Part shown: positions 14,887-23,074 of the stretch, piece after piece
Layout of the letters: each line of letters starts with the position of its first letter
Position numbering within the stretch: the first letter of the stretch is position 1
NCBI GenBank assembly: GCA_030295235.1
Contig: AP026134.1
Location: 806,001 to 870,000, forward strand
Reading direction: 5' to 3'
Length of the DNA stretch: 64,000 nucleotides
DNA from: Fistulifera solaris
Lineage: Eukaryota
Notes under the pieces: model-generated
Told to the model about the DNA's origin: nothing
The model's database searches: none
What the model saw: only the letters and a program-made list of their open reading frames with translations
Program-made: the position numbers and the translations under genes

Positions 14887-15938
14887 TTAGTCAAAGGAGC
14901 GCACAATATCGTCGGCATGGTTGGGCTGGCCGTGAAGGGGACTGGGTGGTCCAAAGTCGTGGACACTTCCGTCAAAAGAATGATTCTCAAAATGCTCGTT
15001 ACTGGCGGCGAGAGCGAGCGGATCCAGTTCGGATGCTGGGTTGATTTCGATCTTATCGGTGAGATGAGAAGGATGAAAAGCGTTGTGAAATGCTGATCCG
15101 AGGTTTTCAAACCCAGTGGCTGCCGGTGATGGCGGCATTTTGTGATGAAGCATCAAGTCCGTATGATCTTCCGAGGGCCGTTCCTGGGGTGGAGTAGCGG
15201 CACTCGTGTTCCCCGAGTCGAGCAGGCTGGTCTCGCCCAGCATACCACTGGAGCTTGCGGCTGTAGTAGGAGTAGTAGTAGGCATGTATCTGCCTTCGTG
15301 GTCGATTCGCTGCTTCTTCGACCAGTGCATTCCGTCGTCGATAGAGGGTGACAAGGACGATGCATCGATCGCTTGAGGGTGGAGTTTGCCAAAGGTCCAC
15401 TTCTCCGGGTCCATGAGATGCTGGCTCGACTCACGGAGAGCGGCTGTGGCTATTTGTTCCGCGTATTCCTTGTTTGAGAGTCCGGTTTGGAGACGCATCT
15501 CATTTACTTGTATCACGTCTGGAGGAACTTCCACTGAGGCTGCGTAGCCAGTACGGTCTTGACGGTTACAATCTCGTAACGCTTGACAAGCCTTCTTCAA
15601 ACACTCTTGTTCCGTGAGTTCTTCCCAGGGTCCTTCTAAACCTCGGGAATTCTTAGAACGTCCCGCTCGTTTGAGAAACCTCCCCGGAGGATCGAGACGT
15701 TTGATATGATCAACAATCTCCTGTGCTACGGCTCTCTTTTCCGTGGTTGTATACTGCGTGCAATAGTTGGCATCGTAACAACCATTTACCAAAGCTCGGA
15801 ATCGTTCATTTCCAGGATGCTGAGCGATATTCACTCCTCTTCCATTTAAAACGTCATGATCCGTGGGTACGATCGGTGCGGTGGCTGGTTGCGGCACTCC
15901 CCACGGATAGTTGACTTTTGAGCTCTCTGATGATTCAT
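14887..15938 (-). CDS. DUF6824-domain protein (diatom-expanded putative transcription regulator)
   Basis: PTDHDVLNGRG...HPGNERFRALV...KRAVAQEIV...PPGRFLK...WEEL...KKACQALRD. Start codon uncertain (15897-15938). Confidence 0.85.
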
Positions 15939-16002
15939 TTGGCTCTTTCGATTATTTTCACAGGTACACGATAGAATAGGAAATCCTCACAGAGGAGGAG
16001 CC

Positions 16003-16024: not shown

Positions 16025-17361
16025 GAAACCGCTACAAACACAAATACCGCAACGCCAGGCCGCTCAACTTTCAAGTAACTTCGGAATGATTGGATCGACC
16101 CTTTCTGGAGAGAATGACAAACAGATAATAATGAGCACAATCGTGATTGACTTGGCTCGGCGGCACGACGATAGTGTGGCAAGTGAAACGAAAACTGTAT
16201 CGAATGTAAATCTCGGATCAACAGCTCGTTCTTTCCCGTCAATAATGAGAGAGGGTACTGTACGAAAGAGGGGGTCCGTGGTCCGTGGACGAGAAAAAAG
16301 GCGGATACCAGGTAATGTATGTTAGCAAGTGCCGTGGATTTGTTTGGAATCTCTCTCCCGTCGAGGGGTCGCGCAGATCGCGCATTCGGCCCATTTTGAG
16401 GCTCTGGATCGGTCGAATGGATCCCTTTTTCGCTTTCGCGCAATGCGCGATGTCCTCGATCACTACTAGTCATTGTACATTACAGTATCGCGAAGGCGTA
16501 AAACGGAGAACTGTGACTACATTTTATCGTATACTAAAAGTAAGGCTCGTCAGCGCTATGCGTTATCGTTTTCCTCATTTGAATCTTGAAGCAACTTCGT
16601 AACGGATAACGGATTGCACGAATTAGATTTCAATCCTTACACATGTTACCTGGTAGGTTCGAGTCGAGCCAAAAGTTAGTTAGTATGTTCAATGTTGAGA
16701 AGCCGCGACAAGAATCGAAAAATGCGCTAACTTGGTTATAAAAACCCCAAGTCGTCTTTCAAGGTCAGTTTTGTCAACCGCGAGGACTTCGTAGAAAATG
16801 CTCTAGCTTAATCCTGTCCTAACAAAGTCGAAAAAACGACAAACGGAGGCAATCCTGCAATGTGATCAGGTAGCAAACTTTCCAATTGTCCTGGGATACT
16901 TTGCGGTCGTCTCAATATTTTTGGAGTCAGATTGCTTTTTACTGCTTTAATAGGCGATCGTGGATTACTAAATCGAGAAAAATAACATAAACAATTACTT
17001 CTAGAAGATTAAAACAATGAAAAATACTTTAGTGGTACTGATTCATTCATCTTTATGAGTTTAGTAGTCTTTTGTTTGATGCGCCTTCGAATCGTGAATG
17101 AACCATGTTCGGTTAGCATACCCACGACTTGAACATAACCCGTAACCTTGTTCAATGTCGATGAGGATCGAATGAATAAAGAATGCGATCATAATATATA
17201 TAACCTTTACTACAAACTACAACACAACTAAGTCAATAAGTTGATAATACATTTTACATCTTACGGAGTCCTTTAAACCCTACTTGAACATTTACACGGC
17301 AATAATCATTTGCGTGGATCCATTAGCATGTCAATCGAATCGATTGTAGATTTGCGCGCTG

Positions 17362-20300
17362 ATGCGAGCCCCCGCTCCCCTCAGTGTGTTCGCCGCTGCC
17401 GAAACGCAAGCTTCCTTGCGGAGCACAAACCCATTTGATGTCTCCAAGGGACCTCCCGGTAAAGGAAGTGTGGTTGCTTTCGTCTTCGGGACGGATAAGG
17501 GATCTATTCACTATCGAACATATGCAGCACCTGGTCCCTCTTCGAACCAAGGCGGGCTTTCCGCACAACTCAATCTGACAACCTCTCTGACCACACCTCC
17601 ATCAAACAGGATATCCTCTCCTCTAGGAGCGAACTCGTCCAGTCAGAGGTCGACTAATTTACCGCGTGCTTACTATCCTGTCGATCTGGGGTCACTGGGT
17701 GGCCCTGTTGTTTCTTGTATTAAATTGGGAGTTTCACAATCGAATTCGACGTATTTTCTTTTGCTCGTGGATGATAACCGGGGGACGTCAGCGACACAAC
17801 CCGGGGCTTATTCTGCCGTTATTGTGGCCCTGACAGCAGGAAATTTCCATATTGTAGTCCCCTCTGGAAATTTGCCGCGAATTTCGTGCGCTACATTTCA
17901 TTCAATGACCGGTTTGGTCTACGGCGCGGGGCGTTCGATACAGGTGCTACGACCTGAGACATGGGAAGAAGAAGTGAAACGAGGGTCCAGATATGCTGCT
18001 AGTCGGTCCAAAAGATTAGTATTCGGAAATAACATTTTGCCAGCACCAGGCGTCCGGACGGGGCAAGATGCAATGGAACTTACAGCAAACGGAAAGGTGG
18101 TAATCGCTGTTGTGGGAAATACCTTCCATGCAATAGTAGGCCAAGAAGCAGATGAGCGACAGCAGACTGGAACAGAGGCGGCTTCAGAAAATATCAAGCT
18201 GATTTCTTTTTCTCAGTCATCTCAAGTGCATCCAGTGATTGCCTTGGATTTGCGTGACGAATCTCTGGACGCTGACTGGTCTTCGTTATTCCTAGCTAGT
18301 GGTCGTGAATGCGCCGTCGTTGACTTAAATTATGGCCCGCCATCTGCTCCGACGCTTTCTGCCAGTAAGCCTCGAAATGGGGTTGTTACGTTGGCGTCGC
18401 CCATTCGTGCGGCCGCTGCATGTTGGCCTTGGATTGTTGTGCTGACCAACGATGGCCTAGTGTCAGTACGTCCACCTTCCTGTCTCTCTGTGACGCTGAG
18501 AACTGTAAGTATATCGTGCGTCGTGCATAAAGATTTATTTGAAATTTCATCTTATGCATATACTGAAAATGAATAGGTTGAAGTTGGTCAACGCCCCAAT
18601 GACTTTTTTTGTGTTGCGAACGTTACGGAACGAAAGCGGAGCTCCATGGATTGCCGCACTTGCTTATTCAGGTGAGAGTAAAATATTGCAATGTCAACCG
18701 GATACGGCTCAAGATCTTGCAGATCGACTTATGCGTCATGCAATTGATGCATTTGGGGCCAATGGATTCCCGAGGGTTGAGGTGGCAGAATCGGTGGGGG
18801 CATCCGTTACTGCGGCTTCCTACGTTGGCCCCGAGCCGTCTCAGCAAGCACGAATGCTACTAAAGCAATACTTGGAGGCTCTACTAGGAATGACAGATTT
18901 CGAAGGCAATCCTAATTCAGGCTGGCCTTCGGAATTAGGGACTGGAAAACTTCGTCAAGGTTCCTCTGGGAGCAAGAAAGAAAAAGTATCCTTCTCCGGT
19001 CGTGGATATCGACCAACGATGCTGTCGGCTGAGTCTCCGGGACATTTGATTGCAGCAACTGCCCTATTGTGTCTCGTGTGCAGTAAAATTTCACCTCCCA
19101 ATCCGGCAGTTGCCAACAGGGCGGCTAAGTCGTGTGCAGATGAGCTTGGTGTCGTTTTTCATGAACGTGGAGATTTATCAGAGAGCGCTTCACAAGTCTG
19201 TGTTCTCGTCGCGGACAAAATTTTACGCGAGGCTTTCGCGAATTTTTCACTCTTATCGGGGTCGGCGTCACCATCTCCTCTGCAGCATAGTAATCGTTGG
19301 TCCAACTCTACAAACAATTCTACGTTTATTGAAGCGACAGTTTGGTTGCTTCGATCAGCTGGTAAGCATGAACAGGCCATTGATGTCGCTTATACTCGTC
19401 TTTTGCAGCAAGGGGAGCAGGTTCAAGCTGAAGAAGAAAGCTCGTCAGTTGGTGGGAAAGGGACATGGTCGCACATTAAATATGAATCCTACACCGCAAC
19501 CCATCTAAGTGATTTATGGTGCTCTGGGAAAAGCGAGGGCTGTGACTTAGTGTTACGGTCTCCGGCGACGTTACGACTATTGGAGAATAATCCCCGATTG
19601 GGACTTTCTGTATTCACGGCCACTCACCCACACTACGAAGACCAGTGGAGAAAAGTGGCAGCTAAAGACGACCCGCTTGTTAATGCCGATTATGTGTACG
19701 ATGTTCTTAAGCTTCTCAAATCAGTAAACCCTACTCTCCCATATGATCAAGAACGTTCCGACAATTTTTCAGACTCCACTCTCCCCTTAGGATCAGGACG
19801 AGCTTTAGCAGTTGCCTTTTTGGAATCGGCGATTGGAATTTATAGCGGTCGACCTTCGGAGCGTCATGATCTCGAAAGTGGTGCTGTTGACAGCAAGGCA
19901 TCAGAGCGCATCGCCAATTTTCATGATGAATTGAGCTTTCTTTTGCTAGAAGGGGTTATCGCCGAGAAAAGTGAAGACGGTGCTCAAGCTCGAGATACTC
20001 GTCTAGGGGAGGTGTATCGAAAAAAATTACAAAAACTGCTTAAATCTCCTCTGGCTCGAATTCGTTCCGATCGCTTTTTGGCCACTTTACCTCCCTCTTT
20101 CTACAGGAAAAGGCGTTAGTGCTTGGTCGTGTTGGTCGACACGAAGATGCTCTTCGAATCTTATACCATGAGCTTGATAGCTTGGAGCTAGCGCTCGAGT
20201 ACTGCGATGATAGATTTGAGCAGCAGCGAGCCCTCCGGGATCGGAGGTATCAGCAGCAGCAACAACAGCTCTCTACTGGGATGGATCAGTCGTTCGACAT

Positions 20301-21144
20301 ATCTACCTTGATTTCCGGTGAAGATAATGCATATCTTCCTCTTGTTCGCGTTGCCTTGGAGTCAAAAGATCAAGAACGAGGAATAAGGGCGGCAATTCAG
20401 ATCCTTGCTCTTCGTCGCAATGCGATCGATCGAGCGGCAGCTCTGCGTTTGTTACCATTAGGCATCCCCGTGTCTGCAGTTGCACGCCCATTCCTCATTC
20501 CTGCCTTGGTCGACAGCGAGTCCCAGGAGCGCCGGTTGGCAGTGGTCGCTGCCTTGATGCGAGCAAGATATTCAAGATTGAAAGAGGAACTGACTGTTGC
20601 GCAATTACGATCGCAAGCTTCTCTCCACGTAGTACCACAGTTACGTAGTCTCAATCTTGGTGAGCCTCTGTATTCGAGCAAGGCAGTACGAGCGCGAACC
20701 AATGCAGCGGCGAGCGCAACAATGCCCGACGTTATGATAATCAAGCATTTCTTTCCCCGAAATGTTGTAATTCAAGCGAAAGTGACGAACAATACGGGCG
20801 GAGATTCGTCGGACTACAGACTTTCAACACATGGCCGGGTTGGGCGAACTTTCACCGAGATTGCGTTTGTAGTGGCAGAGTCTTCCGAAGAAGCCATTCA
20901 ACCTCTTTTCATAGTACCGATAAAGGTTTTACCACAGAAGTTGTCGGGATCAGCCTGGTGTGTATTGGAAGCCGCGCCTGCCCGGATGGATGGAGCAGTG
21001 GCACAGCTTACTTGCGAATTACGGTACACGGTCCAGTCTGTGGAGAGTGCTGGTCTCGTCGGCAGCCCCGGTGTCGGTGTAGGTGGTCGGACCTTTGTCG
21101 AAGAATTACAGGACTTGGAAGTACACGCGGCTCACTTTTCGTAG
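17362..21144 (+). CDS. Vps39/TGFBRAP1(Vps3)-like HOPS/CORVET subunit with a C-terminal gamma-COP appendage-like domain (intron 18505-18576; frameshifts near 18605 and 20100)
   Basis: N-terminal beta-rich CNH-like region, then an alpha-solenoid: YRKKLQKLL...EKALVLGRVGRHEDALRILYHELDSLELALEYCD...ALRLLPLGIPVSAVARPFL. Confidence 0.75.
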
Positions 21145-21230
21145 TATGAAGTTAAATTAAAGAGGGTATATGGACGCGGTTTGTCATATCTTTTCGTTTT
21201 ATTTTTGGGCCTACTAGAGTGAACAACTTA

Positions 21231-21482
21231 CTAAATATACGAATAAGTAAGAGATCTACGAGTTCTCCTTTTGTGTTGCGCCCACTGTGACGACAGCTTT
21301 TTCTTGCGCTCCGCTCGTTCGGCTTGTTTCAATTTGTAGTCTTCAGCGCGCTCGATTGCTCGCTGATCACGTTCCTTCTGCCCTGGCTTGGTGGCTGTTT
21401 GTGAGGCCAGGCCTTCTTTCGCGTCCTTTAAAACGCTTTCAATTTGATTCTTCGCGGCCATCTGAGATGCCTGATTGCCCAT
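21231..21482 (-). CDS. Small helical protein with an N-myristoylation signal; complexin-like central helix
   Basis: MGNQAS (G2, S6) and a charged helix ERAEDYKLKQAERAERKKKLSSQW. The true stop may lie earlier if an A-run indel is present. Confidence 0.65.
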   Translation of the reverse strand: MGNQASQMAAKNQIESVLKDAKEGLASQTATKPGQKERDQRAIERAEDYKLKQAERAERKKKLSSQWAQHKRRTRRSLTYSYI

Positions 21483-21613
21483 GTTGTTTGATGATCGCCA
21501 AACAAATCACAGGTTTATGTTCCAAGAAGAATGCAATAAAATGCCATGGGCGGAAAATGACTTCTCTACAAGTACCAGGTATTGATTTTTGTGGATGCTG
21601 CTGGACGATTGTC

Positions 21614-22138: not shown

Positions 22139-22312
22139 TTTTTGTCTGACGGACGACGGACGCATTTTGATTTTACCACGCGAAACGCGAACATCGTCTT
22201 CGGGAGGTTTCAGTCAAACGTTTTGCGTTTCTCGTCGTTGTTTATTCTTTCGTACATTCTCTCTTTGGTGTTACTGATTTCGTACCACTGCAGTATTACT
22301 TTGTTAACAAGA

Positions 22313-23074
22313 ATGGCTTTCGCGAAATGGTGTAGCTCGGTCGCTATTCTCTTGTGTCTGGAACCGGCGGCGGGGTTCCTGACGACAAACGGCCTACCAC
22401 GGCTTGCCCCAACGTTTGTCCGAATGGCCGACATTATTTCCCCATTTGATGATTCCGACAATAAAAGCAGTACATCTTCTACGAAAACAGCCACCGACAT
22501 TGATAAAGGTCCTCTCGACTTGACGTGGGAGAATGTAGAACTTGTTTTGGACTCAATGAGATCGTATTTAATCCAAGATGGTGGGAATGTTGTGATCAGT
22601 GAAATTGACGGACCAGTGGTTCGTTTGGAGTTACAGGTAGGTCCTTTGTGAGCGAATACTTATCTCTTGTGTTCTTTTGAACGTTCCTGATTGATGCATC
22701 GCGGCTCTGCTTCGATTCAGGGTGCTTGTGGAACGTGTCCTTCATCAACACAAACGATGAAGATGGGATTGGAGCGCGGGTTGAAGGAACGTATACCGGA
22801 AATACAGGAAGTCGTACAAAAAATGCCGGAAGGACCAGAACTCACGGATGAACAAATTAATGTCGTGTTGGATGGTGTACGACCGTTTCTTCAGGTGGCG
22901 GGAGGAAGCATTGACATTGACCGCATTGAAGGGAAAGACGGATTGCAACCTGCGATATTCTTGAACATGCGAGGTTCCAGTGCTAGTCTTAACTCTGTCA
23001 AATTGGAGATTGCTCAACGGTTACAACGGCACTTCATGATGGCTGGTTTAAGGATTGAGTGGGTCAAGAATTAG
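22313..23074 (+). CDS. NFU: Plastid NifU-like Fe-S cluster carrier with two NifU_C domains (intron 22637-22720)
   Basis: Signal peptide plus AAGF. ENVELVLDSMRSYLIQDGGNV...LQ|GACGTCPSSTQTMKMGLERGLKERIPEI; second domain VLDGVRPFLQVAGG. Confidence 0.93.

Follow-up and report, generated by a model that had tools for sequence, protein, structure and literature searches.

Vps39 and Vps3 are the peripheral subunits by which the endolysosomal tethers HOPS and CORVET bind Rab GTPases of the Rab7 or Rab5 type. Vps39/Vam6 (HOPS) and Vps3/TGFBRAP1 (CORVET) share a common order of parts, with a beta-propeller followed by an alpha-solenoid and by a conserved helical block that includes a long last helix, and they end in a zinc finger (zf-Vps39_C). 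In yeast HOPS, as described in PMC9592082, Vps39 interlocks by its C-terminal helices with Vps11, at the long helix and the RING of the latter, and its own long C-terminal helix also touches the propeller of Vps18. According to the comparative survey of Klinger et al. (2013, PMC3785458), the C-terminus is where Vps3 and Vps39 resemble each other most and where both were proposed to contact Vps11, and their sequences are plastic. The gamma subunit of the coat protein complex I (COPI) coat, gamma-COP (COPG/Sec21), carries an appendage in which a linker and a beta-sandwich (Ig-like) subdomain are followed by a platform subdomain. In the description given by Dodonova et al. (2017, PMC5482573), the platform lies exposed and can be reached by partners such as ArfGAP, and the sandwich holds the second propeller of beta'-COP through a strongly conserved contact surface at its base.

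Here we describe a gene of the diatom Fistulifera solaris that joins parts of these two systems. It lies at 17329-21144 (+) of a 64,000-nucleotide stretch of contig AP026134.1 (assembly GCA_030295235.1, positions 806,001 to 870,000 of the forward strand), hereafter called the window. We consider it probable that this is an intact gene for a tether subunit of the Vps39/Vps3 family in which the terminal zinc finger has been swapped for the gamma-COP sandwich, and that the protein has kept its docking and uses the sandwich as a contact module. The order of presumed propeller, solenoid and helical block is that of Vps39 and Vps3, but the diatom protein lacks the terminal zf-Vps39_C and has a 176-amino acid beta-sandwich instead; moreover, the diatom members are longer (about 1150-1550 amino acids) and escape the Pfam families CNH and Vps39_1. 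With the gamma-COP appendage (PDB entries 1r4x and 1pzd) the protein has in common a homologous linker and sandwich, whereas it lacks both the platform and the adaptin-type trunk (there is no adaptin Pfam match, and the upstream part is Vps39-like). It is not a gamma-COP: there the domain sits on a coat adaptor, here on a tether subunit. The gamma-adaptin ear and the GAE domain of GGA proteins are likewise stand-alone C-terminal sandwiches of the appendage type without a platform, but they give no match at the sequence level and their structural score is far below that of gamma-COP.

A gamma-COP appendage beta-sandwich at the C-terminus

The last 176 codons of the gene (20614-21141, +) read QASLHVVPQLRSLNLGEPLYSSKAV...KHFFPRNVVIQAKVTN...VPIKVLPQKLSGSAWCVL...LTCELRYTV...EELQDLEVHAAHFS and are followed by the stop codon TAG at 21142-21144. 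An initial annotation of the window, made from the letters alone, had proposed that a Vps39/Vps3-like subunit ends here in a domain resembling the gamma-COP appendage. The peptide strings that it quoted are all found in the translation, in one frame and at this place, and the preceding helical block (LGRVGRHEDAL..ALEYC..ALRLLP) shares the uninterrupted open reading frame (ORF) 20044-21144 with the terminal domain. No Cys/His pattern of the RING type is present, as had been observed: among the last 176 residues there are 2 Cys and 5 His, and a CxxC is absent.

The Pfam family COP-gamma_platf (PF08752) matched the window protein with an E-value (E) of 3.1e-9 and 37.6 bits (curated cut-off 25), and it was also found in all six other diatom homologs scanned, with 32-50 bits and, at the widest, over profile positions 4-135 of 152. 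When the whole PDB was searched by hmmsearch with 25 full-length diatom homologs, three matches were obtained, and all of them were gamma-COP (1r4x, with E 3e-6 and a span of chain positions 13-160 of 275; 1pzd; 5a1u_E). The AlphaFold2 (AF2) model of the last 343 residues, with a predicted local distance difference test score of 82.5, has helices at residues 1-178, including a long helix at 138-167, and strands at 206-338, the terminal domain after residue 178 being a sandwich of eight to nine strands. Foldseek placed gamma-COP chains on top with this model (1.3e-9 to 1e-8; 1.3e-9 for 5a1u_E and 3.7e-9 for 1r4x), and gamma-adaptin and GGA ears came next at about 1e-4. In the VIA-align superposition on 1r4x, model residues 170-343 were laid on gamma-COP 616-764 with Z 16.0 and a root-mean-square deviation of 2.7 Å over 143 residues, at 26% identity; the runners-up were the beta-COP appendage (Z 10.4), the alpha-adaptin ear (9.7) and GAE domains (about 8.5). 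The likeness to gamma-COP is far beyond chance, and the Pfam, AlphaFold and Foldseek analyses of the C-terminal region bear out what had been recognised by eye.

The sandwich has many invariant residues across the diatom homologs. The match to gamma-COP is limited to the linker and the beta-sandwich subdomain. Each member ends a few residues past the ..EE..L.D.E.. strand, which in gamma-COP is followed by the platform subdomain. Since the window protein ends after the sandwich, stopping right after ..EELQDLEVHAAHFS, the platform is absent. No second COPI family was detected on it in Pfam scans with E up to 10.

Assignment of the upstream part to the Vps39/Vps3 family

The part of the protein upstream of the sandwich belongs, as judged from sequence profiles, to the Vps39/Vps3 (Vam6/TGFBRAP1) family. 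This assignment rests on profile-profile comparison and on bridging proteins, not on direct Pfam matches. An alignment of 25 diatom proteins (A1) was compared by hhalign with an alignment of 14 mixed Vps39-like proteins (A4), and the two matched with Prob 100% and E 2.1e-49 over 475 columns, corresponding to residues 535-1064 of P0005, a 1241-amino acid F. solaris protein that we used as the reference for the gene model. The matching alpha-solenoid lies at 19022-20613 (+) of the window. Its end, at 20113-20613 (+), is the C-terminal helical block of Vps39 type with the long last helix that is also seen in the AF2 model; here a diatom alignment (A2) matched six proteins that bear zf-Vps39_C (A6) with Prob 99.9% and E 9.7e-36 over 354 columns. 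Together with the presence of CNH and Vps39_1 in orthologs, this match supports the family membership that had been proposed. Conservation in the protein is highest in the helical block that precedes the sandwich, where invariant residues occur in runs.

The bridging evidence comes from a search of 1.84 billion representative sequences with a hidden Markov model of 23 diatom sequences, which gave 599 proteins at E<=1e-3. Among these, proteins with CNH, Vps39_1 and zf-Vps39_C appeared at E 1e-22 to 1e-16. Twenty-six distant long matches were scanned with Pfam: COP-gamma_platf was present in 8, of which 5 also had CNH and/or Vps39_1; zf-Vps39_C was accompanied by Vps39_1 and/or CNH in 5; CNH and/or Vps39_1 stood alone in 8; and the remainder had a weak TPR match only (2) or no domain (3). 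In the non-diatom proteins P0162, P0172, P0166, P0180 and P0165, COP-gamma_platf occurs together with CNH and/or Vps39_1. In P0162, CNH scored 55 bits and COP-gamma_platf 124 bits over profile positions 7-152 of 152; CNH scored 34 bits in P0172, and Vps39_1 28.5 bits (cut-off 22) in P0180.

The AF2 model of a full-length ortholog, P0028, consists of a beta region at residues 1-382, helices at 389-992 and a beta-sandwich at 1032-1167. In the ESM Atlas, the clusters nearest to P0263 and P0211 were VPS39/CNH families of animals and plants (scores 0.85 and 0.97), which we take as leads only; none of these nearest clusters listed PF08752. Searches of the PDB by phmmer with P0001, P0190 and P0222 gave no useful assignment to Vps39 or Vps3, and a homolog search with the mixed alignment A4 returned 4 proteins only.

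The sandwich stands exactly where the zinc finger would begin

The alignment of A2 with A6 ends at ..AQLRS, the residue before 20614, which is aligned to residue 981 of P0237; the zf-Vps39_C match of this protein begins at residue 980. The alignment of A1 with A4 likewise stops at ..AQLR(S) before 20614. In agreement with this, zf-Vps39_C was unmatched in the window protein, and the homologous alignment ends where the canonical zinc finger starts. The statement that the sandwich stands instead of the usual zinc finger was thus accurate, the swap falling exactly at the 20614 junction. In the junction alignment, three kinds of ending diverge at the same column, namely the sandwich, the zinc finger and a stop within a few residues.

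The third kind of ending was observed in nine Vps39-like proteins (P0189, P0190, P0211, P0245, P0219, P0232, P0205, P0268 and P0269), which end right after the last conserved helix (..KKRNLQVVHQLLRVREVNLRT). The first seven of these keep the same helical block as the diatom protein up to the same column, and their chains break off about 3-12 residues or less from the junction. Five of the seven have CNH and/or Vps39_1; P0232 has a sub-threshold TPR_Vps41 match only, and P0205 none.

Gene model and intactness

From its sequence and its homologs, the region 17329-21144 (+) is predicted to be a single gene that encodes a protein of about 1240 amino acids. It contains three stop-to-stop ORFs, each in a different frame (17350-18576, 18509-20119 and 20044-21144), whose translations are 92-95% identical to residues 14-390, 410-898 and 899-1241 of P0005 in succession. 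Exon 1 (17329-18504, +) would start with the ATG at 17329 and code for the presumed N-terminal, all-beta propeller; the piece 17362-18505 is 93% identical to P0005 14-390. It is followed by a predicted intron of 72 nucleotides (18505-18576, +; GTAAGT...AG), with an in-frame TAG at its end, across which P0005 reads TLRT directly followed by VEVGQRPNDFF. This intron accounts for one of the breaks between the ORFs. Exon 2 (18577-21144, +), ending with the stop codon given above, is 92-95% identical to P0005 410-1241.

Along this model the window shows three apparent frameshifts. Logan contigs from four public runs (X1-X4) of one organism were compared with window positions 17300-21200. At 17377 (+) the window has an extra base in a C run: the X1 contig omits 1 letter, with a depth of 23.2 of 23.2, and shows 0 other differences over 17300-17877. 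A further extra base lies in a T run at 18604 (+), where 1 letter is omitted by X1 contigs with a depth of 43.3 of 63. A base is missing behind 20097 (+), where a T is inserted by contigs of X1 and X2 that are otherwise identical to the window (10.7 of 23.4 in X1; record 13 of X2 differs from the window in 0 other letters and in 1 gap). In a second haplotype of the same locus, a C is inserted behind 20096; the T and the C insertion alike restore LPPSFLQEKAL, as in P0005. All three homopolymer differences are corrected by the read-derived contigs. The frameshifts are therefore assembly errors in the window, and the gene itself is intact.

As three single-base homopolymer errors fall inside one gene of 3.8 kb, other genes of the window may be broken likewise. 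The same runs contain two sequence versions of the locus, one identical to the window and the other about 7% diverged; over 19093-19492, for example, records 2 and 3 have 29 and 0 differences from the window, respectively. This is consistent with two haplotypes or with homeologous subgenomes. We also observed that many database models of the family, about 780-870 amino acids long (P0006-P0013, P0022, P0023 and others), take the conserved Met in ..LADRLMRHAIDAFG as their start. They have the look of gene calls that lack the N-terminus and begin downstream of the intron, not of a short isoform.

Distribution and origin

Of 120 listed homologs with a length above 600 amino acids, 119 carried PF08752; transcript-derived entries of MMETSP are among them. 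All listed homologs with an organism name are from raphid pennate diatoms (Fistulifera, Mayamaea, Epithemia, Nitzschia, Fragilariopsis and Pseudo-nitzschia, to which a Seminavis-type 'Sro' entry and metagenome-assembled genomes of Bacillariaceae are to be added). The relatives of P0162 are brown algae: Vps39_1 (PF10366), CNH (PF00780) and COP-gamma_platf (PF08752) are listed together for Ectocarpus siliculosus, Pylaiella littoralis and two EukProt entries, while the Laminaria and Scytosiphon entries are marked partial. The Ectocarpus protein matched gamma-COP 1pzd with E 1.4e-13, and its sandwich is therefore less diverged than that of the diatoms. The chimera had been ascribed to diatoms; they do have this architecture, but it is not specific to them, since brown algae carry it too.

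For comparison, the oomycete Phytophthora infestans is listed by Klinger et al. (2013, PMC3785458) with a canonical Vps39 (Vps39_1 and Vps39_2) and a canonical Vps3 (CNH and Vps39_2). For Thalassiosira pseudonana, Table S2 of the same work gives one Vps39 entry (24171, 1461 amino acids) and none under Vps3. Judged by its length, this entry is a candidate member of the family.

A quick tree of 47 rows (LG+G4, with branch support by the Shimodaira-Hasegawa-like approximate likelihood ratio test, SH-aLRT, only) split off four zinc-finger proteins (SH-aLRT 99) and recovered the diatom clade (84) as well as a clade of tail-less Vps39-like proteins with neither zinc finger nor sandwich (99; 10 rows). 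The groups that bear the sandwich were not recovered as one clade in this tree. Most likely the swap was a single occurrence among the stramenopiles, on their ochrophyte side. One event of domain shuffling in an ancestor of the ochrophyte algae would have attached the linker and the sandwich of gamma-COP to the end of the long last helix.

Neighbouring features of the window

Directly downstream of the gene, on the opposite strand, lies a lysine/arginine-rich ORF of 91 amino acids (21234-21506, -; start MGNQ..), for which no Pfam match was found. Further downstream, a NifU-like gene is contained in two ORFs at 22304-23071 (+), with Pfam NifU matches at E 3.3e-5 and 1.6e-16; the gap that splits the NifU domain at about 22652-22690 is probably an intron. 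Upstream, at 14890-15951 (-), there is an ORF of 354 amino acids with a match to Pfam DUF6824 (E 1.5e-20).

Discussion

The evidence presented above suggests a working model in which the protein stays a peripheral subunit of a tether of the HOPS/CORVET type. By analogy with yeast HOPS, the conserved helical block and the long helix would still dock it on the class C core. The initial annotation had named the zinc-binding module of Vps39 and Vps3 as the part that docks onto this core. The account of yeast HOPS in PMC9592082 describes the docking of Vps39 through its long C-terminal helices and the RING of Vps11, and not through the Vps39 zinc finger itself. In the AF2 models the diatom protein keeps the long last helix directly before the sandwich, and for this reason the sandwich would be placed at the core-proximal end, where it may serve as a protein-protein contact module. 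We prefer to see it as a buttress: the sandwich would bind a beta-propeller or a RING-proximal surface of a core subunit and so assume the role of the zinc finger. This preference derives from the homologous gamma-COP sandwich, whose base holds the beta-propeller of an outer-coat subunit. As the platform subdomain is missing, the sandwich should offer no recruitment site of the ArfGAP type.

Several observations speak against this interpretation. CNH, Vps39_1 and zf-Vps39_C were all unmatched by Pfam at E<=1 on the pieces of the window protein and on six of six diatom homologs; the sole Pfam signal related to Vps39 was a sub-threshold TPR_Vps41 match over ALVLGRVGRHEDALRILY. In the PDB, neither a Vps39 nor a Vps3 chain was found with the profile of 25 diatom proteins, and none was among the best 50 Foldseek matches of the full-length P0028 model, which were to generic propeller-solenoid proteins (nucleoporins, proteins of the intraflagellar transport complex IFT-A, Vps18 and clathrin). 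In the tree, the sandwich-bearing proteins, the tail-less ones and two zinc-finger proteins fell in a poorly resolved remainder, and the protein may be an ortholog of either Vps39 or Vps3. The contigs of the four runs are DNA-like over 17300-21200, with the intron covered and no splice joints. Finally, the docking and buttress roles are drawn by analogy from yeast HOPS and from the COPI coat.

The main rival to the buttress is a recruitment hub of the ear type, in which the sandwich would not stabilise the core but would catch lineage-specific accessory proteins by their short linear motifs and carry them to the tether. We regard it as a serious but less probable alternative. GGA GAE domains and gamma-adaptin ears do match the model (VIA-align Z about 8.2-8.6 over 105-125 residues, besides the Foldseek values of about 1e-4), they consist of a sandwich only, and the domain is terminal here. 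On the other hand, homology at the sequence level is to gamma-COP and not to GAE, PF08752 being the only terminal Pfam match, and the account of the appendage in PMC5482573 describes no peptide site on the gamma-COP sandwich and puts partner binding on the platform. The same account bears on the suggestion of the initial annotation that the chimera could couple COPI-type accessory binding to endolysosomal tethering. Such binding is not implied, because the platform with the described ArfGAP-type site is absent. More generally, a coupling of the COPI machinery to endolysosomal tethering, via accessory proteins or via beta'-COP through the sandwich base, is possible but unsupported, and we consider it quite unlikely: although there is true homology between the domain and the sandwich of gamma-COP, which binds the second beta'-COP propeller through the highly conserved interface mentioned above (PMC5482573), the diatom copies are diverged (26% identity, 32-50 Pfam bits), and the loss of the platform removes the ArfGAP site.

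It is also rather unlikely, if somewhat less so, that the protein has left HOPS and CORVET and acts alone or elsewhere, for instance at a membrane contact site, the loss of the zinc finger marking the change. The divergence of the diatom members, which are missed by all Vps39 Pfam models, would fit with this, as would the tail-less Vps39-like group, which shows that the terminus is plastic, and the large sequence plasticity that Klinger et al. (PMC3785458) report for Vps3 and Vps39. However, the helical block before the sandwich is the most conserved part of the protein and aligns with the canonical C-terminal part up to the zinc finger; the contact with Vps11 proposed by the same authors is placed in the C-termini; and T. 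pseudonana 24171, should this entry be a member, is the only protein of Vps39 type that they list for that diatom. As to an artefact, whether a pseudogene, a mis-assembly or a gene model that fuses a Vps39-like gene with a fragment of a gamma-COP gene, its probability is close to nil. The three frameshifts of the window copy could suggest it, but they are single-base homopolymer differences that the read-derived contigs correct. Besides, the junction lies within one uninterrupted ORF and is spanned by records 5 and 6 of X1 (20413-20724), and the domain occurs in nearly all listed homologs, from many sources including transcriptomes, and in brown-algal proteins too.

A literature search, the coverage of which left out most subscription journals, found no publication describing the combination of a Vps39-type protein with the gamma-COP sandwich. 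The existing automatic labels are divided: UniRef and NCBI use 'Coatomer gamma subunit appendage platform subdomain domain-containing protein', and JGI uses 'Vam6/Vps39-like protein'. Surveys based on Pfam fail to recognise the diatom proteins as Vps39, and in databases these proteins take their name from the coatomer domain.

One may further speculate, at long odds, that in ochrophyte algae the sole Vps39-type subunit of the endolysosomal tether gave up its zinc finger for a coat-derived sandwich, which would have kept the ability to recognise a propeller of the beta'-COP type, so that the tether engages membranes coated by COPI or another protocoatomer-derived coat directly. If true, this would be a link between coat and tether that is not known in animals, fungi or plants, and there might be a connection with the additional membrane traffic in cells that have complex plastids.

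HOPS and CORVET are seen as conserved machines with peripheral subunits that are plugged into the core by their C-termini. In diatoms and kelps, a lineage of great ecological weight, the terminal module of such a subunit appears to have been replaced by a piece of the COPI coat, which has been kept under strong constraint. This replacement may be regarded as a natural experiment on the function of the Vps39/Vps3 terminus, on the movement of domains between coat and tether families of shared protocoatomer ancestry, and on what the gamma-COP sandwich can do alone.

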